Origin: Candidatus Limnocylindrales bacterium
GTDB lineage: Bacteria; Chloroflexota; Limnocylindria; Limnocylindrales; CSP1-4
Direction: 5' to 3'
NCBI GenBank assembly: GCA_036504355.1
Contig: DASXVG010000079.1
Span: 580 to 64,579, forward strand
DNA: 64,000 nt
Shown: piece by piece, positions 13,937-47,042 of the stretch
Layout of the letters: each line of letters starts with the position of its first letter
Numbering within the stretch: position 1 is the stretch's first letter
Notes under the pieces: generated by a model
The model's database searches: none
The model's input: the letters and a program-made list of their open reading frames with translations, nothing else
What the model was told of the DNA's origin: nothing
Made by a program: the position numbers and the translations under genes

Positions 13937-15250
13937 GTGGCGGACGGCCGGACGATCGTGTTCTTCCCAGAGGGCGCCTACGGCCCGACGAACAACTGCG
14001 TCGGCATCGGCCAGGTCCTCCGCGAGCGCGGCCACCGGGTGGTGTTCATCGTCGAGGAGAGCTTCGCCGGCAACCTGGAGGCGAAGGGGTTCGAGGAGCG
14101 GCTGATGCGCCTGGGGCCGGCGCCCGAGGAGCCGGAGATTCCCGGCCAGTTCTGGATCGACTTCATCCGCGACACGGCGCCGGTCTTCCGGAAGCCGACG
14201 ATCGAGCAGCTGGGCGAGTTCATCGCGCCAACCTTCCAGGCCCTCATCGACGGCGCGAAGTACGTGCAGCCGCGGCTCGAGGCGATCATCGGCGAGCTCG
14301 AGCCGGATGTCATCGTCGAGGACAACGTCGTCAGCTTCCCGGCGATCATGTCGACGCGCCACCCGTGGGTCCGCCTCCTGTCGTGCAACCCGGCCGAGAT
14401 CAAGGACCCGCTCGTCGCGCCGTTCTCGTCCGGCTACCCGGCGGCGGACCGCAGCGCCTGGCCCGCGTTCCTCGAGGAGGTCGAGCGGACGCATCGCGAG
14501 CTGTGGGACGACTTCGACGCGTTCTGCCGCGACGCCGGCGCCGGCGGGCTCGCGTGGACGAGCACGGGACCCGACTTCATGCACGAGAGCCCGTACCTCA
14601 ACGCGTACTCGTACCCGGCCGAGGTCGACTACGCCCGCTCGACGCCGCTGGGTCCCACGTGGCACCAGCTCGACTCCACCGTCCGCGCCGCCGACACGAC
14701 GTGGGAGCTCCCGGATCACCTCGTGGGCCGTGGCGGAGCCCTGATCTACCTGAGCCTGGGCAGCCTCGGCTCCGCGGACGTGGGCCTGATGCAGCGGCTC
14801 GTCGACCTGCTTGGGCGGACCTCGCACCGCATCATCGTGTCCAAGGGACCCCTCGCGGACCAGATCACGCTCCACGACAACATGACCGGCGAGAGCTTCC
14901 TGCCGCAGCCCGCGATCCTGCCGCAGGTCGACCTCGTGATCACCCACGGCGGGAACAACACGGTCGTGGAGTCGTTCCACCACGGCAAGCCGATGATCGT
15001 GCTGCCGCTGTTCTGGGACCAGGTCGACAACGCCCAGCGCGTCGACGAGACGGGATTCGGAACACGGCTCGCGACGTACGACTTCGAGGATCGCGAGCTC
15101 ACCGGCGCCATCGACCGGCTCCTCGACGACCAGGCGCTCAGGACACGCCTCGCCGCGGTGTCCGCCCGCCTCCAGTCGACGCGCGGGACGGTGCGCGCCG
15201 CCGACCTCATCGAACGGGTCGCGGTGACCCAGGCGCCGGTGACTCGCTGA
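13937..15250 (+). CDS. GT1-family (MGT / UDP-glycosyltransferase-like) glycosyltransferase
   Basis: C-terminal nucleotide-sugar motif ITHGGNNTVVESFHHGKPMIVLPLFWDQVDNAQRV. GTG start is preceded by gaggtggag. Confidence 0.8.
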   Translation: MADGRTIVFFPEGAYGPTNNCVGIGQVLRERGHRVVFIVEESFAGNLEAKGFEERLMRLGPAPEEPEIPGQFWIDFIRDTAPVFRKPTIEQLGEFIAPTFQALIDGAKYVQPRLEAIIGELEPDVIVEDNVVSFPAIMSTRHPWVRLLSCNPAEIKDPLVAPFSSGYPAADRSAWPAFLEEVERTHRELWDDFDAFCRDAGAGGLAWTSTGPDFMHESPYLNAYSYPAEVDYARSTPLGPTWHQLDSTVRAADTTWELPDHLVGRGGALIYLSLGSLGSADVGLMQRLVDLLGRTSHRIIVSKGPLADQITLHDNMTGESFLPQPAILPQVDLVITHGGNNTVVESFHHGKPMIVLPLFWDQVDNAQRVDETGFGTRLATYDFEDRELTGAIDRLLDDQALRTRLAAVSARLQSTRGTVRAADLIERVAVTQAPVTR

Positions 15251-36733: not shown

Positions 36734-37648
36734 GTGGACCTCGCCGTCGACGCCCCACAGCCCCTCCCGCCCGCGCTGCGGGACGCGATCCTCGCCTGGT
36801 ACGACGCGACCGGCCGCGAGCTCGCCTTCCGTGCCACCACGGACCCGTACGCGGTGCTCGTGAGCGAGCTCATGGCGCAGCAGACGCAGGCGCTCCGCGC
36901 CGCAGCTTCGTGGACCTCGTGGATGGCGCGCTTCCCCTCCGTCGAGGCATTGGCAGCGGCGCCGATCGCGGACGTCCTCCGGGCGTGGGCGGGGCTGGGG
37001 TACAACCGCCGGGCGGTGCACCTCCATCGGGCGGCAAAGGTCATCGTCGCAGAGCACGGCGGACGGGTTCCGTCGTCGGTCTCCGAGCTCGAGGCGCTGC
37101 CGGGCGTCGGGCCGTACACGGCGCGCGCCGTCGCCGCCATCGCGTTCGGGGTGCCGGTCGGCGCGGTGGACGTCAACGTGAAGCGGGTGCTCGGACGGAT
37201 CGCGGCCGGCGGGCCCGAGGCGTTGACGCCCGGGGCGATCCAGGCGCTCGCGGACGCGTCCGTCCCTGTCGACAGGGCAGGGGAGTGGACCCACGCGCTC
37301 ATGGACGTGGGCCAGCGGGTCTGCAGGCCGTCGAAGCCGAACTGCGCGGACTGTCCCGCGATCGCGTGGTGCCGCTACGCGGCCGGGGAGCGGCCGACAC
37401 CGGGTGCAGCGGATGCGTCGGCGACGCGCGCGCGCCGGTCGGAGCCCGCATTCGAGGCGACGAACCGCTGGCTCCGGGGCAGGATCGTCGATCGGGCACG
37501 CGAGGCCCCAGGGTGGGTACCGTTCGCCGACGGCATTGGCGACCATGGGCCGGGCGCCGTCCGTGCCGCGATCATCGCGCTCTCGCGCGACGGGCTCCTC
37601 GAGGTGCGCGAGACGCCGACGGGGGTCGAGGCTCGTCTGCCCCGCTGA
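36734..37648 (+). CDS. mutY: A/G-specific adenine DNA glycosylase (MutY, short actinobacterial type)
   Basis: VLVSELMAQQTQ and LPGVGPYTARAVAAIAFGVPVGAVDVNVKRV (HhH-GPD with Asp). Cluster motif CRPSKPNCADCPAIAWC, i.e. C-x6-C-x2-C-x5-C for a [4Fe-4S] cluster. The GTG 36734 start is uncertain. Confidence 0.75.
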   Translation: MDLAVDAPQPLPPALRDAILAWYDATGRELAFRATTDPYAVLVSELMAQQTQALRAAASWTSWMARFPSVEALAAAPIADVLRAWAGLGYNRRAVHLHRAAKVIVAEHGGRVPSSVSELEALPGVGPYTARAVAAIAFGVPVGAVDVNVKRVLGRIAAGGPEALTPGAIQALADASVPVDRAGEWTHALMDVGQRVCRPSKPNCADCPAIAWCRYAAGERPTPGAADASATRARRSEPAFEATNRWLRGRIVDRAREAPGWVPFADGIGDHGPGAVRAAIIALSRDGLLEVRETPTGVEARLPR

Positions 37649-37757
37649 CACGCTCGCCGCGCCATCCGCCGCGTGGTCTCGCAGGGGGGGTTGCCCGGCG
37701 ACGGCCGACCGGGCACCCACGGTCCGGCGACGGCCCGCTCGCGATACCCTCTCCGAC

Positions 37758-38540
37758 GTGCCGACCCGATCCGTCCCCCCGCCCGCCGACGACCCGACGC
37801 TGGCGACCGCCAGCCTCGACGAGCTGGCCCTGCGTTGGGCGGACGTCGCCTCCCGAGGCGCCATCTCGGCCGAGGCGATGACGGGGCTCGACCGCAAGGC
37901 CCAGGGCCTCGGAACGACCGGTGCGACGCTCATGGAGCATGCGGGCACCGCGGTCGCGGCCGCCGCTCGGGCGCTGCTCGCGCACAACGACCGGCTCGAT
38001 CGCCCGGTGCTGATCCTCGCCGGGCCAGGGAACAACGGCGGCGACGGGTTCGTGGCGGCGCGCAAGCTCGACGAGTGGGGGATCGCGTCGATCGCGGTGC
38101 TCGTCGCCGCGGACGAGCGTCCGCGTACGCCCGACGCGGCGCGCAACTGGAAGCGTCTCGAGGGGCTGCCGAACGTCCAGATGATCCATGCTCCCGTCGC
38201 CCGAGACCTCGCGATGCTCGGCCAGGGAATCGACAAGGCGGGCATCGTCGTCGACGCGCTCCTTGGCACCGGGGTCCGCGGCCAGCTCCGCGACCCGGTC
38301 CGGGAGGCCGTCGGCGTGATCCGTCGCGCTCGCGAGGCCGGCGTCCCGGTCCTCGCGGTCGACACGCCAACGGCCGTCGACCTCACGAGTGGCGACGCGT
38401 CGGATCCCGTCGTTCGCGCGGACCTCACGATCACCTTCCACCGGCCCAAGACCGGGCTCCGGGCGCGGGTCGGCAGGGCGCTCGCCGGCCGGATCCTCGT
38501 GGCGCCGATCGGCATCCCGCCGGAGGTGGACCGTGGCTGA
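37758..38540 (+). CDS. NAD(P)H-hydrate epimerase (YjeF N-terminal domain only)
   Basis: ILAGPGNNGGDGFVAAR and VDALLGTGV are signatures of YjeF_N. The GTG 37758 start is uncertain. Confidence 0.7.
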   Translation: MPTRSVPPPADDPTLATASLDELALRWADVASRGAISAEAMTGLDRKAQGLGTTGATLMEHAGTAVAAAARALLAHNDRLDRPVLILAGPGNNGGDGFVAARKLDEWGIASIAVLVAADERPRTPDAARNWKRLEGLPNVQMIHAPVARDLAMLGQGIDKAGIVVDALLGTGVRGQLRDPVREAVGVIRRAREAGVPVLAVDTPTAVDLTSGDASDPVVRADLTITFHRPKTGLRARVGRALAGRILVAPIGIPPEVDRG

Positions 38541-38764: not shown

Positions 38765-40435
38765 ATGACCATCCCGGCCGGTCTGCACGACTCGCGGCCG
38801 CCCCTCGCGCGCCGGGGCGCCGACCTCGAGCGCCTCGCGAACGAGCACTGGGACCTGCTCATCGTCGGCGGCGGGATCGTCGGCGCCGGCGCGCTCCTCG
38901 ATGCCGCCAGCCGGGGGATGCGGGTGGCGCTCGTGGAGCAGGAGGACATCGCGGCCGGCACGTCGTCTCGCAGCTCGCGGCTCATCCACGGCGGCCTGCG
39001 CTACCTCCAGCGGCTCGAGGTGGGACTCGTCCGGGAGGCCCTCGTCGAGCGGGCACGGCTCCTGCGGCTCGCGCCGCACCTCGTCAGGCTCGAGGCGTTC
39101 CTGTTCCCGCTCTACGGCCCGCCCGCCGTCACCCGCGCGTTCTACGAGGCGGGGCTGACCATGTACGACCTGCTCGGCAGCCGGAGGACCGGCGGCGGCC
39201 ACCGCCACCTCGGCCTGGACGAGACGCTCGCGTACGCACCGAGCCTCGTGCCTACGAACCTCCGCGGCTCGCTCCTGTACCACGACGCGATGGAGGACGA
39301 CGCCCGGTTCGCGCTCGCGGTCGTGCGCACCGCGCAGGCGCGCTTCGGGGAGCACGCCGTCGCGGTCACGCGGGTGCGCGCGCTCGGCCCGCTGCGCGGC
39401 GGGAGCCGCAACGGCGATCCAGTCGCGGGTGCGCGGGTCGAGGACCGCCTCACCGGCGAGTCGTTCGACGTCCGGGCACCAACGGTGCTGGACGCGACCG
39501 GCGTGTGGGGTGCCCTCCCGGCCCGTCCATTCGGGGCAGGCAGCTTCTCCGTGCTGCCGTCGCGCGGCGCCCACCTCGTCGTCCCGCGCGACCGGATCCC
39601 CGCGAGGGGCGGCATGACCCTCCGGATCCCCGGCCGCGTCGGGTTCCTCGTCCCGTGGCCGCGCCACTGGATCGTCGGCACGACGGACACCCCGCACCAC
39701 GGGCCCGTCGAGCGGATCGCGGCAACGAGCGAGGACGTGGACGGGATCCTGGCCACGGTGAACGGCGCACTGGACGTGGAGCTGACGCGCGACGACCTCG
39801 TCGGCACGTACGCCGGGCTGCGGCCCCTCGTCGCGCCATCGGATGCCACGTCGTCGGTGAGGATCAGCCGCGAGCACCGGGTCAGCGTCGAAGGTCGGGG
39901 CCTCGTCCGCGTGAGCGGCGGCAAGTACACGACCTACCGGGTCATGGCCCGCGACGCGGTGGACGCGGCCCTGGGCCCGGATGCCCTCGTGCGGCCGAGC
40001 AGGACCCTCCAGCTCCCGATCCACGGCGCCGCCCGCCGCGAACAGCTCGACGCGCTGGCGGACCGCCTCGCGTCGGGCGAGCACCGCCTCGGCCCGGAGG
40101 TCGCGCAGAGCCTGGTCGACCGCCATGGCACGGACGCGGACGCGGTCCTCGCGTACGGCGCCGAGCACGACCTCATTCGTCGGCTCGTGGACGGCGCGCC
40201 GTTCCTCGAGGCCGAGATCGCGTGGGCGGTCGAGCGCGAGATGGCCCTCACGCTCGACGACCTGCTCGCCCGCCGGATGCGCCTCGCCCCGACGCTCCCC
40301 GACCGCGGCGCCACGATCGCGCCGCGCGCCGCCCAGATCGCCGGACACGTGCTCGGCTGGGACCGGGACCGCCAGGCGAGCGAGGTCGCGGCCTACCTCG
40401 AGACGGCCCGCGGGGAGTACGGGATCCCGGCCTGA
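38765..40435 (+). CDS. glpD: FAD-dependent glycerol-3-phosphate dehydrogenase
   Basis: DLLIVGGGIVGAGALLDAASRGMRVALVE and GTSSRSSRLIHGGLRYL. Length and C-terminal domain are typical of GlpD. Confidence 0.85.
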   Translation: MTIPAGLHDSRPPLARRGADLERLANEHWDLLIVGGGIVGAGALLDAASRGMRVALVEQEDIAAGTSSRSSRLIHGGLRYLQRLEVGLVREALVERARLLRLAPHLVRLEAFLFPLYGPPAVTRAFYEAGLTMYDLLGSRRTGGGHRHLGLDETLAYAPSLVPTNLRGSLLYHDAMEDDARFALAVVRTAQARFGEHAVAVTRVRALGPLRGGSRNGDPVAGARVEDRLTGESFDVRAPTVLDATGVWGALPARPFGAGSFSVLPSRGAHLVVPRDRIPARGGMTLRIPGRVGFLVPWPRHWIVGTTDTPHHGPVERIAATSEDVDGILATVNGALDVELTRDDLVGTYAGLRPLVAPSDATSSVRISREHRVSVEGRGLVRVSGGKYTTYRVMARDAVDAALGPDALVRPSRTLQLPIHGAARREQLDALADRLASGEHRLGPEVAQSLVDRHGTDADAVLAYGAEHDLIRRLVDGAPFLEAEIAWAVEREMALTLDDLLARRMRLAPTLPDRGATIAPRAAQIAGHVLGWDRDRQASEVAAYLETARGEYGIPA

Positions 40436-40680
40436 GCCGGCCCCTTCAAGCGCCCCGCCGGGACCCCGTCCGGTGTCCCACGACCACGGCCAAAGGTCAC
40501 CCCCGGGTTGCGAAATTGGGTATCGCCACGGTTGCGCTTTGTGCGTAGACTGCGCCCGTGCGCGGCGACCGCGCACGTGCTCACACTCGATCGCACGTTC
40601 GACACTTGGTCTCCTCCGGACGGCACACGCAACTCGAAGGACCCGGGCAAGAGGCGGCGACACACGGAGGAGATCGGCAC

Positions 40681-41091
40681 GTGGCCGACAAGACCCTGAC
40701 CTGTTCCGACTGCGGGATGGAATTCGCCTTCACGGAGCGCGAGCAGGCCTTCTACGCCGAGAAGGGTTTCTCGGAGCCCCGGCGGTGCCCCTCGTGCCGC
40801 GCCAGCCGCAAGGCAGCGCGCGCGGGTGACAGCGGCGGCTATGGCGGCGGCAGCTCGTACTCGAGCGGCGGCGGCTACGACTCCGGGTACGCCGGTGGCG
40901 GCGGCTATTCCGCCGGCGGGTATGGCGGTGGCGGCGGGGGCGGTGGCTACGGCCAGCGCAGCAGCGCACCGCGCGAGATGTTCGACGCGACATGCTCGAA
41001 CTGCGGCAAGGACGCTCGCGTCCCGTTCCGCCCGACCAACGGCAAGCCGGTCTACTGCTCGGACTGCTTCCGCTCGATGCGGGGCAACTGA
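40681..41091 (+). CDS. Double zinc-ribbon protein with a central Gly/Tyr/Ser-rich low-complexity linker
   Basis: GTG start with ggagga 9-10 nt upstream. N-terminal CSDCG...CPSC and C-terminal CSNCG...CSDCF CxxC pairs. Linker: GGYGGGSSYSSGGGYDSGYAGGGGYSAGGYGGGGGGGGYG. Confidence 0.7.
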   Translation: MADKTLTCSDCGMEFAFTEREQAFYAEKGFSEPRRCPSCRASRKAARAGDSGGYGGGSSYSSGGGYDSGYAGGGGYSAGGYGGGGGGGGYGQRSSAPREMFDATCSNCGKDARVPFRPTNGKPVYCSDCFRSMRGN

Positions 41092-41112
41092 CCCGAGGCA
41101 CACGCAGCACGG

Positions 41113-41141
41113 ACCGGGCCGCGGCAACCGCGGCCCGGTTT
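41113..41141. terminator. Bidirectional terminator-type hairpin between convergent genes
   Basis: accgggccgcgg-caa-ccgcggcccggt forms a 12-bp perfect stem, followed by ttt. It abuts the stop of the minus-strand radical SAM gene. Confidence 0.6.
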
Positions 41142-42697
41142 CATGTTGGTCGGGGAGCGTTCACCAACCGCTCCGTGGGCGCCATCCCGCGGCCGGCCCG
41201 GGCGTACAGGCCGGGCACGACGTTCCGGGCGCAGAACGGGATGCGGACAGGCCCGGCCCCGTCCTCGATCGTGCCCACGTGGACGCAGCATTGGCGGAGA
41301 CGCTCCACGTTGAGCGTCCAGGCGTCCATGAACCCCTTGACGCTGATGCGCTTCACGCGCAGCGCGGCGTCCTCGATCCCGTCCCGGCCGCCCAGCACGG
41401 AGCGGGCGAGGGTGCGCACGAACCCCCCGACGTCCAGTCGACACGCACCCGCGAGTCCGACGAGATGCTCGACCATCTCCGTCCGGGAGACGGACATCGA
41501 GCCGCTCAGCAGGGCCGAGAGATCGCTCCACATCGCGTCGTCCGGGATGAGGCGGTTGCTGGCCAGCCCCAGGTGCTCCCGCATCCGGTCCCTGCCCAGC
41601 AGGTCGGGCAGCGACCGCCATGCCCCATGGTCATCACGCACCAGGAAGGTGAGCGCCGTGCAGTCCGGATGGCTGCAGGGCAGGGCCACGAAGTCGTCGG
41701 CCTTGATGACCTCCGGCGCCTGCAGCGCGAGGCGGCGGATGACCCCGGTCGTGGTCGCACGAGCCACGGGATCCACCGAGCCCGCCCCGAACAGGGGCTG
41801 GAACACGACGCCGCCGACATAGCGCGTCTCGAGCGCCGTGCGCAGCACGTCCCCGACGTCGCGGTCGTTGATGCCCGCACCGACCGCGCACGCAAGCGTG
41901 ACGAACAGCCGCTCGCCGGTGGCGCGCTCCAGCGCCCGACGCCGGAGGTCCACGAGGTCGGCGCCGCGGAGCTGCCGCGTCGCCCCGGTCGAGGGCCCGT
42001 CCCACTGGAGGTACAGCTCGATCCGCGGCCGGGCGGCGACGAGGCGCGCGAGGAGCTGGTCGTCGCGCGCGAGCCGCAGCCCGTTGGTGTTGAGCACGAT
42101 CCGCCGGACGGGCCGCTCGAGGAGCCCGTCGAGGACCTCGTCGAGCCGAGGGTGGAGGGTCGGCTCGCCGCCGCTCAGCATCACGAGGTCGAGGGCCCCG
42201 CCCTCGCGGGCGGTGGCGGCATCCACGGATGCCAGGACGGACGCGACAGGCGCGTACCGGTCGCGGCCCGGTCGGCTCGACGCGAAGCACGGGGGGCACG
42301 CCAGGTTGCAGTCCTCGGTCAGGTCGATGAGCAGGATGCAGGTGTGCTGCTCCTGGAGCGGGCCCAGGCCGTCGACGTAGCCCATCGGGATCGGGAGGCA
42401 ATCGGCCGAGTCAGGCGCGACCCACTTCGCGGGTGCCCGCCAGGTCTGCAGGTCCGCCCACAGGCTCGCGTCCTCCTCGTACAGGCTGACGACCTCCCCG
42501 TGTCCCCGGCGGCACACCCGGCGGAGCCAGATCGCCCCGTCCTGCTCCGCGAGGACGCCCTGGAGCACGTCGCGCTCGTACTCGAGCTCGAGGTCGGGGT
42601 GCTCGCGCAGGCACTCGCCGCACAACGTGAGCACCATGCGTCGGAGCAGGTACGGCCGCTCCGCGCCGACGACCGGATGCATCGCTGGCTCAGCCAT
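41141..42697 (-). CDS. Radical SAM enzyme with an N-terminal zinc ribbon (Tes / MJ0619-like family)
   Basis: N-terminal CGEC...VCRRGHGEV. Radical SAM triad DCNLACPPC, then VMLSGGEPTL. C-terminal Cys motifs PCSHPDC, RQCCVHV, IPFCARN. GGAG lies 7 nt before ATG 42697. Confidence 0.75.
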   Translation of the reverse strand: MAEPAMHPVVGAERPYLLRRMVLTLCGECLREHPDLELEYERDVLQGVLAEQDGAIWLRRVCRRGHGEVVSLYEEDASLWADLQTWRAPAKWVAPDSADCLPIPMGYVDGLGPLQEQHTCILLIDLTEDCNLACPPCFASSRPGRDRYAPVASVLASVDAATAREGGALDLVMLSGGEPTLHPRLDEVLDGLLERPVRRIVLNTNGLRLARDDQLLARLVAARPRIELYLQWDGPSTGATRQLRGADLVDLRRRALERATGERLFVTLACAVGAGINDRDVGDVLRTALETRYVGGVVFQPLFGAGSVDPVARATTTGVIRRLALQAPEVIKADDFVALPCSHPDCTALTFLVRDDHGAWRSLPDLLGRDRMREHLGLASNRLIPDDAMWSDLSALLSGSMSVSRTEMVEHLVGLAGACRLDVGGFVRTLARSVLGGRDGIEDAALRVKRISVKGFMDAWTLNVERLRQCCVHVGTIEDGAGPVRIPFCARNVVPGLYARAGRGMAPTERLVNAPRPT

Positions 42698-42710
42698 GGT
42701 GTCTCCGCCG

Positions 42711-43199
42711 TCAGCGGAACGGATCCGTCGTGGCGACGCAGGTCCCCGCGATGATGACGAGGAACACGAACGGGATCGCAAGCACCGCGACGATTGCGCC
42801 GGTCACCCCGCGCTTGAGCCGCCCGCTGATCCGGATGGCTGCCAGGCCGAGCAGGAGGACCGGCAGCAGCAGCGCCCCGAGGATCAGAGCCGCGGGCGCG
42901 CCGGAGTTGTAGATCGCCTGCTGGTCGCCGGTCACCAGGGCAAGGCTGATCGCGCCCCACACGGCAAGGAACATCACGACCAGGATCGCTGCGGCGCGGC
43001 CGCGGAGGTCCGACCCGGGTGGTAGTGCGGCGTCGAGCTCCGCGCGCCGGGCAGCCATCGCGGCAGTGATCTCGGGTTCCGCGTACCCGGCGTCGAGCAG
43101 CGCCTGGCGGAGCCCGCCCGGCGACAGCCGTGGGTCCTGTTCCCGGAGCCAGGACAGGATCTTCTCGACGACCTCAGGCCGTGGTTGCGGCCAGCCCAT
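42711..43199 (-). CDS. Membrane protein of unknown function (soluble helical N-domain plus three TM segments; one Cys near the C-terminus)
   Basis: A strong Shine-Dalgarno sequence (ggagggagggg) precedes ATG 43199. Hydrophobic segments: AAILVVMFLAVWGAISLALV, APAALILGALLLPVLLLGLAAI, GAIVAVLAIPFVFLVIIAG. The only Cys is in IIAGTCVATTDPFR. Confidence 0.6.
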   Translation of the reverse strand: MGWPQPRPEVVEKILSWLREQDPRLSPGGLRQALLDAGYAEPEITAAMAARRAELDAALPPGSDLRGRAAAILVVMFLAVWGAISLALVTGDQQAIYNSGAPAALILGALLLPVLLLGLAAIRISGRLKRGVTGAIVAVLAIPFVFLVIIAGTCVATTDPFR

Positions 43200-44019
43200 T
43201 GTCCCCTCCCTCCTGGACGACGAGCGGTGACGGCGGCGGAGCGGCGACGTGCCACAGCCCGGAGCGCGCCTCACGAACGAAGTGGACGACGAGGAGCGCC
43301 GTCATGGGGATCAGCACCAGCTGTGGCCCGGACAGGCCGAACGCCTGCGGCTCGTTGCCGCGGACGAACTCCACCAGGAAGCGAAACGTGAACGCCGCAA
43401 GCAGGTAGGCCTTGAGCAGGTCGCCGTCGATCGGGACCCGCCCGCCCCACACGACGATCGCCCCGATCGCGGCGAGGTTGAAGGCGACCTCGTACAGCAT
43501 GCTCGGGTGCATCGGGCCATCGCAGCCCGGACACCACGGGAACGCGCCAGCGGCACTGGCCGGCACCGTCACCCCCCAGGGCATGGTGGTCGGCGTCCCG
43601 AGCGGCAGCTCGGACAGGTAGCAGCCGACCCGGCCCACGGCGACGGCGACCGGGATCGCGAGGGCGTAGCAGTCTCCGGTCGAGAACGGGTAGCGCAACG
43701 CCCGCTTGGTGACCACCGCCGCGACCCAGCCGCCGGCGATCGCCCCCAGCAGGCTCTTGCCACTGTGCTCGATGACCCAGGTCAGCGGCGCGGATCCGAG
43801 GTCCTCGTACGCCTCGAGATGCTCCCACGACAGGAGCAGCCGCCCGCCCACCCCGCCGCCGATGAGGACCGCGACCGAGATCAGCGCGATCCGCTCGTCC
43901 AGCATGCCTCGCCGCTGGAGCGCCAGGAAGTAGAGCGCGATCCCGAGCGCGATCCCCGCCGTCGAGAACAGGTCATGGGTCCCGACCGCGATGTCGCCGA
44001 CCCGCAGCACCGGCAGCAT
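43174..44019 (-). CDS. Lgt-family (prolipoprotein diacylglyceryl transferase-like) membrane protein, divergent paralogue
   Basis: LIGGGVGGRL. VGRVGCYLSELPLG aligns to the canonical GRxGNFxNxE motif. HPSMLYEVAFN aligns to the HPtQLYE motif. About 7 hydrophobic segments. Confidence 0.7.
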   Translation of the reverse strand: MLPVLRVGDIAVGTHDLFSTAGIALGIALYFLALQRRGMLDERIALISVAVLIGGGVGGRLLLSWEHLEAYEDLGSAPLTWVIEHSGKSLLGAIAGGWVAAVVTKRALRYPFSTGDCYALAIPVAVAVGRVGCYLSELPLGTPTTMPWGVTVPASAAGAFPWCPGCDGPMHPSMLYEVAFNLAAIGAIVVWGGRVPIDGDLLKAYLLAAFTFRFLVEFVRGNEPQAFGLSGPQLVLIPMTALLVVHFVREARSGLWHVAAPPPSPLVVQEGGDNGLAATTA

Positions 44020-44032
44020 GGGTGGCGCCCGC

Positions 44033-44590
44033 TCAGGCTCCGGGCGCGACAGTCGTCGAGGGTCGCGGGCGAGCGGGCAGCATCCGGTGCGTCACCTCTG
44101 TCATGTAGGTGCGGTAGGCCGGGTAGGCGGCGAGCAGCGTCTGCTCCTCGCGGGCGAGCTTGTAGCGGTCGAGGTACCAGGCGACCACCGGGACGAGCAG
44201 CAGGGCGACGAGGCTCGCACAGGCAAGGGCCCAGCCTGCGACCAGCAGGACCTGGGCGCTGCAGACGGGGTGCCGGCTGTACCGGTAGGGCCCGGACGTG
44301 ACCAGCCGGGCGGCCCGGCGGGGGACGACCCAGACCGAGAAGCTGTGCCCGAGGTGGGCGGCACCCCAGGCGAACACGAGCACCCCGGCGACCATGACCA
44401 CCGTCCCCGTGACGCCGAGGACGGTGCGGGGCCACCCGGCGATTGCCGGGCCGGTCAGCGGCGCCACGACGAGCGCCCCGATCTCGAGCAGCATCTGGAG
44501 CCCGATCCAGCCCTCGCCGCGCGTCCCCAGGGGCGGAAGCCGTGCCTCCGCTGCCTGCCGACCGCCCGATCCAGCCGCCGCGATCCCCAT
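44033..44590 (-). CDS. ICMT/PEMT-family membrane methyltransferase
   Basis: LVTSGPYRYSRHPVCSAQVLLVAGWAL followed by EEQTLLAAYPAYRTYMTEV is the C-terminal signature of the isoprenylcysteine carboxyl / phospholipid methyltransferase family. Start ATG 44590 is tentative. Confidence 0.65.
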   Translation of the reverse strand: MGIAAAGSGGRQAAEARLPPLGTRGEGWIGLQMLLEIGALVVAPLTGPAIAGWPRTVLGVTGTVVMVAGVLVFAWGAAHLGHSFSVWVVPRRAARLVTSGPYRYSRHPVCSAQVLLVAGWALACASLVALLLVPVVAWYLDRYKLAREEQTLLAAYPAYRTYMTEVTHRMLPARPRPSTTVAPGA

Positions 44591-44762
44591 GGCGCATCTC
44601 CCACGCGGAGCCTTGGCGTGTGAGCATGATCGAGCCCCCGGGCGACGCACAGGGCCAAGCGGCCCGCCGCGGGGCCGCGCCCGTGCGGCCCTGGGGCTTG
44701 TGAAGGACCTAGACTTCCCGCACTGCCCGCGTCCGACGCCGGGCCCAGTCCGCGGAGTCGCC

Positions 44763-47042
44763 GTGCCCGCTCGCATCCAGGTCCAGCGGCTCGCCACCTG
44801 GCTGCTGCTCGGCGCTGCCCTGACCGCGGCGATCGGGTACGCGGTTCTTCGTGGCAGCCTGCCCTCCGACGGCGCCCGCGTCGCGTTCTACGGGGATGCC
44901 TGGTCGGACCGAGGCATCCGGATCGAGCCGATCGATGCACCGGCTCCCGGGCTGCTGGCCGGCGACGTGATAGTCGCGGTTGCCGGACGCCCCATGGAGG
45001 CCTGGATGCGCGAGGTCGCGACCGGAGCGATCGCCGACCCCGGGGGTGGCAGGCCGATGGACTACCTGCTCGAGCGGGACGGCACTGCTGCCGGCGTCAC
45101 CGTCGCCTGGGCTGCGCCCGCAATCGGCGCCACGCTGCTCGCAGGCTGGAGCGTGCTGCTGTTCTCGATCGCGACTGCCGCGATCGCCGCATACGTCTAC
45201 GCCCGGAGGCCGCACGAGCCAGCCGCCTCGGCGCTGATGATCCTCGCGTCCGGCGCCGCTGGCAGCAGCATTCCCTGGTTCCTCGGAACGACCGTGAGCG
45301 ACGTCGTCCTCGGACCGCCGTTCCTGCTGCACATCCTGCTCACCGGGCCGCTGTACATGCTCATGTGGCCGGCAGGCCTGCACCTTGCGCTGGTGTTCCC
45401 AACCCGGTCGACCGCGGTCCGACGATGGCGCTGGCTGGTCGCGGCCGTGTACGGATCGGGGCTCGGTGCGTACCTCGCCGTCATGGGACTCGCGCTTGCG
45501 ATGAGCTCGTCCGCCCTGGACTGGGTCGGTCGCTGGCCCACGGTCCAGCTGGCGATCGTCGCGCCGACCGTGCTCACCACGATCGTCATCGTTGTCATCA
45601 GGTACCTGCGCACGACCGACCCGGCCGCACGGGCGAGGGTGCGACTCGTGACAGTCAGCGTCGTCGCGAGCGCCGTCGTCGGCCTGGTGCTGTTCCAGGG
45701 CCCGGAGCTCCTGTTCGGGCGTGCGATCCTGCCGGTCGAGGCGGTCGGCCTCATCGCCCTCCCGCTGCCGCTGGGGTTCGCCGCCGCCATCCTCCGCGAT
45801 CACCTGTTCGAGATCGATGTCGTCATTCGGCGCACGGTGGTCTACGGCGGGATGACCCTGGGCGTGCTCGCCGCCTACGTGGCGACGGTCTACGCCGTCA
45901 CCAGGCTGGCCGGCCAGGAGCCTGGCTTCGCGGGCTCGCTCCTCGCCACGGGGGTCGCCGCGCTCGTCGCCCTCCCGCTGCGGGACGGGCTCCAGCGGGT
46001 CGTGAGCCGGGCGATCTACGGCTCGCGCGACGAGCCGTGGCGGGCGATGCGGCGGCTCGGCGCGCGGCTCGAGTGGGCCGTGGACCCGGAGCGGGCGTTC
46101 CCCGCGGTCGCCGAGATCGTCGCCGACGCGCTCCGGCTGCCGTACGTGGGGGTCGAGGTCGTGGACGAAGTCGGTCGGGCGGAGATCGTGGCGGAGCACG
46201 GCAGCGCCCCGGCCACGGTGGAGGCCGTGCCGCTCGTCCACGGCGGTGAGGCGGTCGGGCGCCTCCTCATGGGGGTCCGCTCGGGCGAAGACGGGTTCCA
46301 GCCCGCCGAGCTCGCGCTGCTCCGGGACCTCGCCCGCCAGGCGGGCGCCGCGATCCACGCCCAGCGGCTGCGCGACGACCTCGCCCGCTCTCGCGAACGT
46401 CTCGTCGTCGCGCGGGAGGAGGAGCGGCGCCGGCTCCGGCGGGACCTCCACGATGGCCTCGGGCCGACGCTCGCCGCGATCGGGATGCGCGCCGAGGCAG
46501 CCGAGACGCTGCTCGACGATGGCGTCTCGGCAACACGACCCCAGCTCGAGGCGCTGCGCGCCGAGGTGGCGACCGCGCTCGCCGACGTGCGGCGGCTCGT
46601 GGACGGCCTGCGGCCGCCGGCGCTCGACGAGCTCGGCCTCGTGGGGGCCATCGGCCAGCAGGCGGCGCGGCTCGATGCGGGCACCGGCGACGGGACGGGC
46701 CTCGCAGCGATCCAGGTCGAGAGCGACCCCACGACGCTGCCCGACCTTCCCGCGGCGGTGGAGGTTGCCGCGTACAGGATCACGGTGGAGGCAATGACCA
46801 ACGTCGTCCGTCACGCCGGTGCGCGGCTGTGCAGGGTGCGCCTCGTGGCCGGGGCCCAGCTCACCATCGAGGTGACCGACGACGGACGCGGCCTGCCGGT
46901 GCCGGTCCGAGCCGGCACGGGCCTCGAGTCCATGCGCGAGCGAGCGGAGGAGCTGGGCGGCCACGTCGTCTTCGAGCGGATCCCCGACGGCGGCACGCGC
47001 GTCGTCGCCCGCCTGCCACTCGAGCGGGGAGTCCCGGCGTGA
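44763..47042 (+). CDS. Sensor histidine kinase: N-terminal extracytoplasmic segment, polytopic membrane region, GAF-like domain, HisKA_3, HATPase_c
   Basis: PDZ-like stretch GLLAGDVIVAVAGRPMEAW, then 8 or more hydrophobic segments. GAF-like region FPAVAEIVADALRLPYVGVEVVD...GRLLMG. H-box EERRRLRRDLHDGLGPTLAAI. ATP-binding region VTDDGRGL...GTGLESMRERAEELGG. Start uncertain (GTG 44700 or 44763). Confidence 0.8.
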   Translation: MPARIQVQRLATWLLLGAALTAAIGYAVLRGSLPSDGARVAFYGDAWSDRGIRIEPIDAPAPGLLAGDVIVAVAGRPMEAWMREVATGAIADPGGGRPMDYLLERDGTAAGVTVAWAAPAIGATLLAGWSVLLFSIATAAIAAYVYARRPHEPAASALMILASGAAGSSIPWFLGTTVSDVVLGPPFLLHILLTGPLYMLMWPAGLHLALVFPTRSTAVRRWRWLVAAVYGSGLGAYLAVMGLALAMSSSALDWVGRWPTVQLAIVAPTVLTTIVIVVIRYLRTTDPAARARVRLVTVSVVASAVVGLVLFQGPELLFGRAILPVEAVGLIALPLPLGFAAAILRDHLFEIDVVIRRTVVYGGMTLGVLAAYVATVYAVTRLAGQEPGFAGSLLATGVAALVALPLRDGLQRVVSRAIYGSRDEPWRAMRRLGARLEWAVDPERAFPAVAEIVADALRLPYVGVEVVDEVGRAEIVAEHGSAPATVEAVPLVHGGEAVGRLLMGVRSGEDGFQPAELALLRDLARQAGAAIHAQRLRDDLARSRERLVVAREEERRRLRRDLHDGLGPTLAAIGMRAEAAETLLDDGVSATRPQLEALRAEVATALADVRRLVDGLRPPALDELGLVGAIGQQAARLDAGTGDGTGLAAIQVESDPTTLPDLPAAVEVAAYRITVEAMTNVVRHAGARLCRVRLVAGAQLTIEVTDDGRGLPVPVRAGTGLESMRERAEELGGHVVFERIPDGGTRVVARLPLERGVPA

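Follow-up and report, generated by a model that had tools for sequence, protein, structure and literature searches.

A gene cassette recurring across bacterial phyla joins an Lgt paralogue with an altered active site, cysteine-tailed membrane proteins and a Tes-like radical SAM enzyme

Lgt attaches the diacylglyceryl group of phosphatidylglycerol to the lipobox Cys in N-terminal signal peptides, and its signature motif faces the periplasmic side of the membrane. Tes, the archaeal tetraether lipid synthase, couples the termini of the saturated isoprenoid chains of archaeal lipids. Here we describe a group of genes in which relatives of these two enzymes are found together. The group lies in a stretch of 64,000 nucleotides from a Candidatus Limnocylindrales bacterium (Chloroflexota; contig DASXVG010000079.1 of assembly GCA_036504355.1, positions 580 to 64,579), which has a base composition of ~73% G+C and is called the window below. 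The conserved core of the group, which consists of an Lgt-like gene, a gene for a small membrane protein (mid) and a gene for a Tes-like radical S-adenosylmethionine (SAM) enzyme, is present in at least four bacterial phyla. Judged from sequences and predicted structures, the cassette looks like a dedicated lipid or protein-lipidation pathway.

Previous work on the closest described enzymes sets the frame for the comparison. Six residues are absolutely required in Escherichia coli Lgt, namely Y26, H103, R143, N146, G154 and R239 (mBio 2026, PMC13251419), and the N146C substitution occurs in 'distantly related' Lgts, including the partly functional Lgt of L. interrogans (PMC13251419). GDGT-MAS (Tes) has four metal sites (Lloyd et al. 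2022, PMC9433317), binds ordinary E. coli phospholipids, and works by way of an intermediate in which a lipid carbon is bonded to a sulfur of a cluster (PMC9433317). The M. jannaschii protein MJ0619 is GDGT-MAS itself, and its assignment as a methylase could not be corroborated (Lloyd 2022, PMC9433317); the 'MJ0619-type C-methylases' that a sequence-only reading of the window had set apart as a separate branch are therefore no such branch. In bacteria, the same kind of chemistry, i.e., tail-to-tail coupling of acyl chains by a radical SAM enzyme, has been proposed for Mss, the Thermotoga membrane-spanning lipid synthase, and for a pathway to brGDGTs (branched glycerol dialkyl glycerol tetraethers). 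In the literature Mss and Tes count as different enzymes, no Lgt-like or Cys-tailed partner of Mss has been reported, and we liken Mss to the window's enzyme by descriptions only.

The cassette of the window comprises the following features.

44033-44590, minus strand: ICMT/PEMT-like membrane methyltransferase, 185 aa from the Met at 44590 (Pfam ICMT, PEMT)
43174-44019, minus strand: integral membrane protein with a predicted Lgt fold, N146C type, 281 aa (Pfam LGT; signature GRVGC replacing GRxGN)
42711-43199, minus strand: single-Cys small membrane protein 'mid', 162 aa, without a Pfam or NCBIfam family
42738-42740, minus strand: codon of the single conserved Cys of mid (residue 154), the proposed acceptor site, read directly from the sequence
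41141-42697, minus strand: radical SAM enzyme of the Tes/GDGT-MAS/TrsS superfamily, 518 aa (Pfam Radical_SAM)
41113-41141, no strand assigned: hairpin with a 12-bp G+C stem, between the radical SAM gene and a convergent zinc-finger gene

Re-reading the coordinates confirmed that these are four co-directional minus-strand open reading frames (ORFs), with the spacings given by the sequence-only reading: going from the ICMT-like gene to the radical SAM gene, and given these starts, the first pair is separated by 13 nt, the second overlaps by 26 nt and the third is again separated by 13 nt. A Shine-Dalgarno sequence stands 5-7 nt upstream of three of the four starts (GGGAG before the ATG at 44590 of the ICMT-like gene, GGAGGGAGG before the ATG at 43199 of mid, and GGAGA before the ATG at 42697 of the radical SAM gene); no obvious one was seen upstream of the Lgt-like start. 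All the motifs quoted in that reading are present in the translations (SGPYRYSRHPVCSAQ, VGRVGCYLSELPLG, HPSMLYE, CGEC...CRRGH, CNLACPPC, PCSHPDC, QCCVH and PFCARN), as is the single Cys of the third protein.

To place the cassette among other genomes, one genome per species was scanned, which yielded at least 518 loci with radical SAM relatives; the best 80 were used for neighbourhoods. These best 80 of 518 belong to Chloroflexota (Limnocylindria, Chloroflexia), Eremiobacterota, Thermoanaerobaculia and cultured Actinomycetota. Nearly all of them carry the cassette, which M. smegmatis and M. fortuitum also have. The radical SAM protein had abundant close relatives among metagenome-assembled genomes of Chloroflexota, and a 112-kb JGI contig matched the window itself. 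In 75 of 84 loci the radical SAM gene had the Lgt-like gene upstream of it in the same orientation, and the exceptions were mostly interrupted by contig ends. The trio of Lgt-like gene, small protein and radical SAM gene was retained in three contexts whose radical SAM proteins are 82%, 58% and 51% identical to that of the window, and the cassette genes are also tightly packed in locus L068 (loci are numbered L001 onward).

Clustering of the flanking ORFs gave two further families: mid (52 loci), which includes the third gene of the window, and dn (41 loci). As an independent test of linkage we took dn as the starting point, using metagenome contigs. The radical SAM gene lay directly upstream in 63 of the 64 dn-seeded loci that had enough upstream sequence, and the Lgt-like gene was present in all nine that extended more than 3.2 kb upstream. 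Because the gene order recurs across phyla, the arrangement goes beyond chance. Co-occurrence across genomes, which the sequence-only reading had proposed as a check, was thus found from both starting points. Its description of a dedicated module stands for the core of Lgt paralogue, Cys-containing membrane protein and Tes-like radical SAM enzyme; the ICMT-like gene, which it had counted as part of the joint module, does not belong to that core. Upstream of the Lgt-like gene we found an ICMT-like gene in nine of nine loci with a radical SAM protein at least 57% identical to the window's, all of the window's own subclade, and in none of more than 150 other loci; it is a clade-specific accessory. 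Conversely, dn is a conserved fourth component that is absent from the window and hence was not visible to the earlier reading.

We also considered anti-phage defence. PADLOC gave no support for a defence system, returning a generic radical SAM/viperin-domain match (7.6e-8 over 88 residues) and none for the other proteins. This idea was rejected, as no PADLOC model matched any component.

The radical SAM protein is the component whose affinities are clearest. It matched Pfam Radical_SAM (2.2e-17) and, under the gathering score, Zn_ribbon_HMPTM (4e-4). The top-scoring NCBIfam model for it and for every clade member tested was TrsS, an uncharacterised radical SAM (seleno)protein (NF045646; 191 bits for the window protein and 190-203 for relatives, cut-off 490), and the Tes model (NF045702) gave 161 bits, with 147-158 for relatives (cut-off 450). 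Neither cut-off was reached, and the protein falls outside both equivalogs, which speaks for the sequence-only reading. Unlike TrsS, it is encoded without a selenocysteine codon. Among PDB sequences it matched only GDGT-MAS (7TOL, 1.3e-30 by phmmer). Its AlphaFold2 model (predicted template modelling score 0.72) matched 7TOL/7TOM full-length (E 6.8e-25, TM-score 0.67-0.70), whereas the second-best fold match, at 4.6e-8, was seventeen orders of magnitude weaker. On this model, the protein is a full-length structural relative of GDGT-MAS.

The metal sites are partly shared. In common with GDGT-MAS/Tes (M. jannaschii MJ0619) are the four-domain fold over the full length, the rubredoxin-like N-terminus, the CX3CX2C motif and the C-terminal CC...FC. 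Within the aligned clade the rubredoxin-like site, C26xxC29...C62xxxH66, is invariant, although its spacing (CX3H, 32 residues between the pairs) differs slightly from the CX2CX20CX2H of GDGT-MAS. Likewise invariant are the CX3CX2C cluster, CNLACPPC, and the C-terminal CC...FC (C470, C471, C489), which aligns with 7TOL in a part of the model where AlphaFold2 confidence is low. In GDGT-MAS the C-terminal auxiliary cluster is where the C-S intermediate forms. The main departure concerns the cluster designated [4Fe-4S]N. None of 15 aligned clade members has a Cys at the positions of its GDGT-MAS ligands C73, C77 and C80, and the His ligand of GDGT-MAS is also absent; the aligned segment of the window protein is GYVDGLGPLQEQHTC. 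H118 and C120 are invariant in the clade, and there are extra invariant Cys in PCSHPDC (C341, C346) and at C419. Unlike Tes, the enzyme is hosted by bacteria with ester-linked straight or branched acyl lipids, and its gene is paired with one for an Lgt-fold protein, a pairing that has not been reported for Tes.

The Lgt-like protein matched Pfam LGT (2.6e-28) and missed every lgt equivalog of NCBIfam (TIGR00544, 52 bits with a cut-off of 118.9; NF000778, 54 bits with a cut-off of 334), and its mycobacterial and Eremiobacterota counterparts also fell under the lgt equivalog cut-offs. The NCBI name is 'prolipoprotein diacylglyceryl transferase family protein', with nothing further. Used as a single sequence in phmmer, it had no match in the PDB; a profile built from 22 members of the family matched E. 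coli Lgt (5AZB) full-length at 2.3e-18. The AlphaFold2 model, built from a shallower alignment of database homologues, had a mean predicted local distance difference test score of 81.5, and 5AZB was its sole significant PDB match (E 6.6e-6, TM-score 0.59). The predicted structure is thus the Lgt fold with its seven transmembrane (TM) helices. The structure predictions suggested by the sequence-only reading therefore returned the 7TOL and 5AZB folds, except that the C-terminal cluster region of the radical SAM protein remained of low confidence.

Residues in the active site have changed extensively. R143 and G154 of E. coli Lgt are retained, and the other four of the six essential residues are altered in the window protein (Y26H, H103L, N146C and R239M). 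The Cys at the N146 position, Cys133, is invariant in the 22 sequences, which come from four phyla and share the motif GRxGC. The H103 position is Leu or Ile across the family and the Y26 position is His or not kept. The R239 position, Met in the window, is Leu or Gln in relatives and Arg in the Eremiobacterota type only. The family keeps G142/G145, HPxxxYE and RFxxEFxR, so that the conserved active-site residues in window numbering are R130, C133, HP..YE and RF..E..R. As in E. coli Lgt, the active site is predicted to lie at the outer leaflet. Unlike E. coli Lgt (5AZB/5AZC), the protein carries in its head domain a CxxC motif, CPGC (residues 163-166, window 43510-43530), which stands just before HPSMLYE in what is predicted to be an extracytoplasmic region. 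CPGC is invariant in Chloroflexota, present in Actinomycetota and absent from the Eremiobacterota type; it might form a disulfide close to the active site, with a redox or a structural role. No second lgt and no lspA were found within the 64-kb window.

The actinobacterial clade of the cassette extends to species such as Mycolicibacterium fortuitum, peregrinum, septicum, mageritense, wolinskyi and goodii. The last of these and M. smegmatis have the genes in the order Lgt-like, mid, radical SAM and dn (261, 205-212, 522 and 86 aa, respectively); the junctions are mostly 4-nt overlaps, the ICMT-like gene is absent, and the cassette adjoins ppx, DUF501, divIC and eno. In M. smegmatis (L169) the Lgt-like protein is ~37% identical to that of the window and has VH (His at the Y26 position), GRIGC (N146C) and AMHPS. 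From the gene order beside eno/ppx and the reported substitutions, we infer that this gene is MSMEG_5408, which has been described as a second M. smegmatis Lgt homologue with Y26H, N146C and 'presumed low activity' (PMC13251419) and which would thus be of the same subtype as the window protein. A recent preprint identifies MSMEG_3222 as the major Lgt of M. smegmatis and MSMEG_5408 as non-essential; it also reports that cells without MSMEG_3222 keep residual lipoprotein labelling, for which its authors suggest that MSMEG_5408 prefers a different lipid, and redundancy between the two homologues has been suggested as well. If our identification is correct, the sequence-only reading, which took the window's protein for a divergent Lgt paralogue, gains support, the same type being the non-essential second homologue in M. 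smegmatis.

Directly upstream of the mycobacterial Lgt-like gene is a gene for a 233-aa multi-TM protein (L168:4857-5558 in M. goodii, L169:2309-3010 in M. smegmatis) that has no Pfam match and appears ZIP/ZupT-like by eye; upstream of it are an ArsR/SmtB-type helix-turn-helix regulator and a P-type ATPase. MSMEG_5406, near the cassette, was ~9-fold down-regulated in a zinc-starvation study (PMC7174638).

The mid proteins have no family in Pfam or NCBIfam in any of the several phyla sampled, and the same holds for dn. The mid protein of the window has an N-terminal soluble domain followed by three predicted TM helices, and its C-terminus reads RLKRG-TM-IIAGTC-VATTDPFR. Counted from the Met at 43199 it has exactly one Cys, predicted to stand where the last helix reaches the outer side, and this residue, Cys154, is equivalent to a conserved Cys in the mid proteins of Chloroflexota, Actinomycetota and Eremiobacterota. 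The N-terminal parts vary (helical, with YTxEALRxxLxxAGY, in Chloroflexota; Pro-rich in mycobacteria; zinc ribbons in some Eremiobacterota). All end alike: after a basic loop comes a hydrophobic helix of ~20 residues, then a Cys and a short tail. In a regular-expression test, an ORF of this kind was found on the coding strand of 61 of 76 cassettes and on the control strand of 6 of 76. When 78 mid sequences were aligned on the Cys, 55 had Gly at -2; L, I, T or V stood at -1, and the median tail was 10 residues. Two or three tandem paralogues of the mid gene were common. The motif covaries with the Lgt-like subtype, GxC going with GRxGC...E, and [TS][AL][LI]C or PWPC with GRFGCFFAGCC.

The positive-inside rule, applied by eye to the charge distribution, puts the predicted place of the mid Cys where the last helix meets the outer leaflet. 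A lipobox Cys has the same position, which is on the side that the Lgt signature motif would face. Together, these features suggest that the conserved C-terminus of mid provides an acceptor cysteine. Unlike the N-terminal lipobox used by Lgt, the putative acceptor would be an xGxC, internal or C-terminal, behind the last TM helix of a protein with several such helices.

Most of the cassettes that failed the regular-expression test hold a long mid variant with GGSCYAL, a Pro-rich linker and a two-Cys domain of ~140 aa. Such variants were seen in L020, L026, L032, L033, L038, L039 and L045 (e.g., L033:2237-3109); in them LLIGGSCYAL is followed by a poly-Pro linker and by a domain that ends in ISGTITWxCE and has no Pfam or NCBIfam family. 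Their layout resembles that of a lipoprotein with an unusually long N-terminal anchor. The TM-Cys segment of one mycobacterial mid protein (GLGIGLMVGWALMSLFTAGFCTGVNP; L079:5321-5971, residues 186-211) weakly matches PF24191, 'Mycobacteriophage protein with transmembrane helix' (E 0.005, 17.8 bits), which is below the cut-off of 31 bits.

In most lineages dn, a small membrane protein of 90-110 aa, is encoded directly after the radical SAM gene, and it is nearly always accompanied by that gene. It has exactly two invariant Cys, in YE[RG]xAFTFC[KR] and [KR]C[FW], both flanked by basic residues. We did not find dn in the window, and the whole ICMT-bearing subclade to which the window belongs is without it. 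Matches to dn in the window (~14.45-14.71 kb, E 0.003) were spurious, arising in an alternative frame of a 437-aa ORF at 13937-15250 (plus strand) that is glycosyltransferase-like by eye.

The ICMT-like protein matched Pfam ICMT (1.8e-12) and PEMT (4.6e-10), fell short of the NCBIfam isoprenylcysteine methyltransferase equivalog (NF040696; 48 bits, cut-off 160) and had weak PDB sequence matches to 8XKU and to the ICMT structure 4A2N. With Ma-ICMT (4A2N) and PEMT it has in common the Pfam domains and the C-terminal SAM-binding region, GPYRxxRHP...EE...Y...Y, which is conserved in the five sequences compared. In these proteins RHP[VI]C is invariant; its counterpart in ICMT is presumably RHPxY. 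The change from RHPxY to RHPxC, and the restriction of the gene to one cassette subclade, set it apart from ICMT. One member of the subclade, L166 (ENA contig_112119), has at positions 1-4654 genes for an M48 peptidase, two unknown proteins and an Rce1-like CAAX protease (PF02517, 8e-17), immediately upstream of and co-directional with the ICMT-like, Lgt-like, mid and radical SAM genes, which together make up a complete 'CAAX-processing-like' set. The proteases were rejected as conserved partners of the cassette, since they were seen in L166 only and the Rce1-like gene in 1 of 168 sequences.

Taking the components together, we propose that the radical SAM enzyme remodels a lipid and that the dedicated Lgt paralogue transfers it to the Cys of mid; we would put the probability of this at about 0.4. 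At the cytoplasmic face, the radical SAM enzyme would extract a glycerophospholipid and, like GDGT-MAS, carry out radical chemistry on an unactivated carbon of an acyl chain. Tail-to-tail C-C coupling or macrocyclisation might result, or else a C-S intermediate on the C-terminal cluster. This step might be assisted, or its product further tailored, by dn or by the ICMT-like enzyme using cytoplasmic SAM. At the outer leaflet, the Lgt paralogue with its altered site would use the non-standard lipid, or just one that differs from the housekeeping substrate, and would move the glyceryl-lipid onto the thiol of the mid Cys, where the last TM helix ends on the extracytoplasmic side. The mid proteins would be dedicated acceptors or carriers, and the product would be a specialised lipid-modified membrane protein, apart from the housekeeping Lgt/LspA lipoprotein pathway.

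Several observations speak for this proposal. The mid proteins look like substrates because the C-terminal TM-Cys-tail is universal while the N-terminal domains are variable and the genes occur as tandem paralogues, because the acceptor motif changes together with the Lgt-like subtype, and because the long variants with a Pro-rich linker resemble lipoprotein tethers. The radical SAM enzyme would be similar to a lipid synthase, since 7TOL is by far its best match in both sequence and fold, and over the full length. A transferase role for the Lgt-like protein is supported in that an Lgt with N146C may still be partly functional, the one of L. interrogans being an example (PMC13251419). The conserved linkage of the genes, the binding of ordinary phospholipids by GDGT-MAS, the retained Lgt fold and residues, the predicted outer-leaflet place of the mid Cys and the residual labelling in M. 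smegmatis point the same way.

Other points weigh against it. The support consists of sequence and predicted structure for all components of the cassette. With four of the six essential residues changed, the Lgt-like protein may not be a diacylglyceryl transferase. Unlike a lipobox, the acceptor motif of mid carries a bulky residue at -1. The chemistry of the radical SAM enzyme may differ from that of Tes, because the [4Fe-4S]N ligands are absent and PCSHPDC and C419 are extra. Furthermore, the radical SAM and ICMT-like enzymes must act on the cytoplasmic side, whereas the mid Cys is predicted to be outside, and we have purely inferred the link between the cytoplasmic and outer half-reactions. 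The topology of mid depends on charge distributions judged by eye, and the roles given to dn and to the ICMT-like protein are guesses. A more specific form of the proposal would have a widespread protein-lipidation pathway in which the N146C-type Lgt adds to the mid Cys a glycerolipid remodelled by Tes-like C-C coupling, i.e., a macrocyclic or membrane-spanning anchor; in this form we consider it doubtful.

The alternative that survives best is a pathway for lipids only, in which the radical SAM enzyme makes membrane-spanning or macrocyclic bacterial lipids, as in the brGDGT idea, the Lgt-fold protein is a glyceryl or head-group transferase or a hydrolase acting through Cys133, and mid and dn have structural or scaffolding roles. 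Against it, cassette-bearing fast-growing mycobacteria are not known to make membrane-spanning lipids, and we noticed no ether-lipid genes in the loci whose gene tables were read, in which no dedicated search for them was made. The relationship of the radical SAM enzyme to Tes/GDGT-MAS is as expected on this alternative, bacterial homologues of Tes have been proposed as brGDGT synthases (PMC8941075; PMC11868695), and the altered catalytic residues of the Lgt-like protein suggest a different reaction. A PlsY gene adjoins the cassette in L165, and GlpD is encoded near it in the window and in L001. A lipid-only pathway, however, leaves unexplained the only universal feature of mid, a Cys that ends a signal-peptide-like helix, as well as its variable N-termini and tandem copies. 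We regard it as rather unlikely.

The ICMT family methylates the carboxyl of a C-terminal S-lipidated Cys, and one could therefore imagine processing of a CAAX-like kind, or like that of RiPPs (peptides made by ribosomes and modified after translation). The Cys of mid would be lipidated, the short tail after it, or the part before it, cleaved off, and the new C-terminal Cys methyl-esterified by the ICMT-like protein in the window's subclade, to give a mature lipopeptide or a carboxymethylated lipoprotein. The tail is indeed short (median 10 aa), mid occurs in tandem copies, as precursor genes do, and L166 has Rce1-like and M48 genes upstream of its cassette. But an Rce1-like gene occurs in just 1 of the 168 sequences, most cassettes have no ICMT-like gene, and the tail is not a CAAX box. 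In addition, the ICMT active site needs cytoplasmic SAM, whereas the mid Cys and its tail are predicted to be extracytoplasmic. Such processing is improbable as the function of the cassette.

An equally speculative possibility is that the radical SAM enzyme acts directly on a protein Cys, forming for example a thioether between an unactivated lipid carbon and a Cys of dn or mid, with the Lgt-fold protein as a membrane platform only. In one variant, the two Cys of dn and H118 and C120 of the radical SAM protein would rebuild the missing [4Fe-4S]N site. The lipid C-S(cluster) intermediate of GDGT-MAS makes such chemistry conceivable, and it would fit that H118 and C120 are invariant in a clade without the three [4Fe-4S]N Cys and that dn, with exactly two invariant Cys flanked by basic residues, is nearly never found without the radical SAM gene. 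Against this, the window's subclade has no dn and still keeps H118 and C120, the mid Cys is predicted to lie across the membrane from the radical SAM enzyme, and the conserved Lgt residues R130, C133, HP..YE and RF..E..R would have no role. We think it a long shot.

Finally, that the Lgt-like gene is the organism's own lgt, or a redundant copy, among unrelated neighbours would agree with its Pfam LGT match, predicted Lgt fold and public annotation as a prolipoprotein diacylglyceryl transferase, with the lack of another lgt in the 64-kb window and with the redundancy suggested for the two M. smegmatis homologues, but this is very improbable and largely refuted by synteny: gene order is conserved across four phyla, the genes overlap, the protein falls under every lgt equivalog cut-off with four of six essential residues changed, and the major M. 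smegmatis Lgt is a different gene, MSMEG_3222.

The literature that we searched holds no description of a linkage between Lgt-like and radical SAM genes, of the Cys-tail signal of mid, of the dn family or of the loss of the N-terminal cluster, and no paper mentioning the radical SAM neighbour of the M. smegmatis Lgt homologue. This agrees with the sequence-only reading, which knew of no characterised pathway joining these activities. The superfamilies of the components, the N146C subtype of Lgt and bacterial Tes homologues as possible makers of brGDGTs are already known. Nevertheless, there is a real chance that the cassette represents a new lipidation pathway.

Bacterial Tes homologues serve as genomic markers for the producers of brGDGTs, which are used as a palaeoclimate proxy, and none has been functionally confirmed (PMC8941075; PMC11868695). 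That a large clade of them is tied to an Lgt-like gene and to Cys-tailed proteins alters the meaning of these markers. If the cassette is a lipidation pathway, many of the 'bacterial Tes homologues' of Chloroflexota and Actinomycetota counted as brGDGT markers would serve lipidation instead. If the mid Cys is lipidated, it would represent a new bacterial lipidation signal, C-terminal, placed after a polytopic anchor and with G at -2, and the attached lipid might be tailored by the radical SAM enzyme. MSMEG_5408, so far treated as a weak or redundant Lgt, gains from its operon partners a specific role that can be tested, and these partners may explain the residual lipoprotein labelling without MSMEG_3222. 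As the cassette is present in genetically tractable fast-growing mycobacteria, its function is directly testable in M. smegmatis.

The sequence-only reading had also described the borders of the cassette. The hairpin at 41113-41141, by which it took the unit to be closed, has a perfect 12-bp stem (free energy -32 kcal/mol, z -4.1; none of 200 shuffles folded as well) and is located between convergent genes. The part of that claim that concerns termination is less secure: no T-run follows the stem on the minus strand, the consensus terminator scan made no call at the hairpin, and consensus promoter and terminator scans of 40900-45200 gave no calls at all. The hairpin probably marks the end of the transcription unit.

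On the other side, divergence from a sensor kinase and a response regulator was borne out by Pfam (HisKA_3/HATPase_c and Response_reg/GerE, respectively). Control of the cassette by this pair, which had been suggested, is not backed by conservation. The position is held by pyruvate-dehydrogenase genes in the closest relative, L001, and a tblastn search of the other loci found a related kinase and regulator beside the cassette only in L083 (Nonomuraea corallina), plus a kinase-like match downstream and on the opposite strand in L041. The two-component system was rejected as a conserved regulator on these grounds. In L083 the histidine kinase and a NarL-type regulator are encoded directly upstream of, and co-directional with, the cassette (L083:2756-4735); the regulator is 48% identical to that of the window, and the mid gene sits before the Lgt-like gene.

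Two observations concern genes of glycerol-3-phosphate metabolism. In L165, a 73%-identical relative on a long-read contig in which the cassette genes appear frameshifted, a PlsY-type glycerol-3-phosphate acyltransferase (L165:7589-8227; PF02660, 2.6e-41) shares the strand of the radical SAM gene and is encoded directly 3' of it. In the window, the cassette is followed on its 3' side by a double treble-clef zinc-finger protein (40630-41091) and then by a GlpD-type glycerol-3-phosphate dehydrogenase (38765-40435); the adjacency of GlpD, which would link the cassette to this metabolism, may be coincidental. L001, the 82%-identical relative, differs from the window in its upstream flank and keeps (L001:9601-12832) the same downstream gene order as window 38765-41091. 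Its next downstream position is taken by a YjeF_N gene, the positional counterpart of which in the window is the ORF at 37404-38540.

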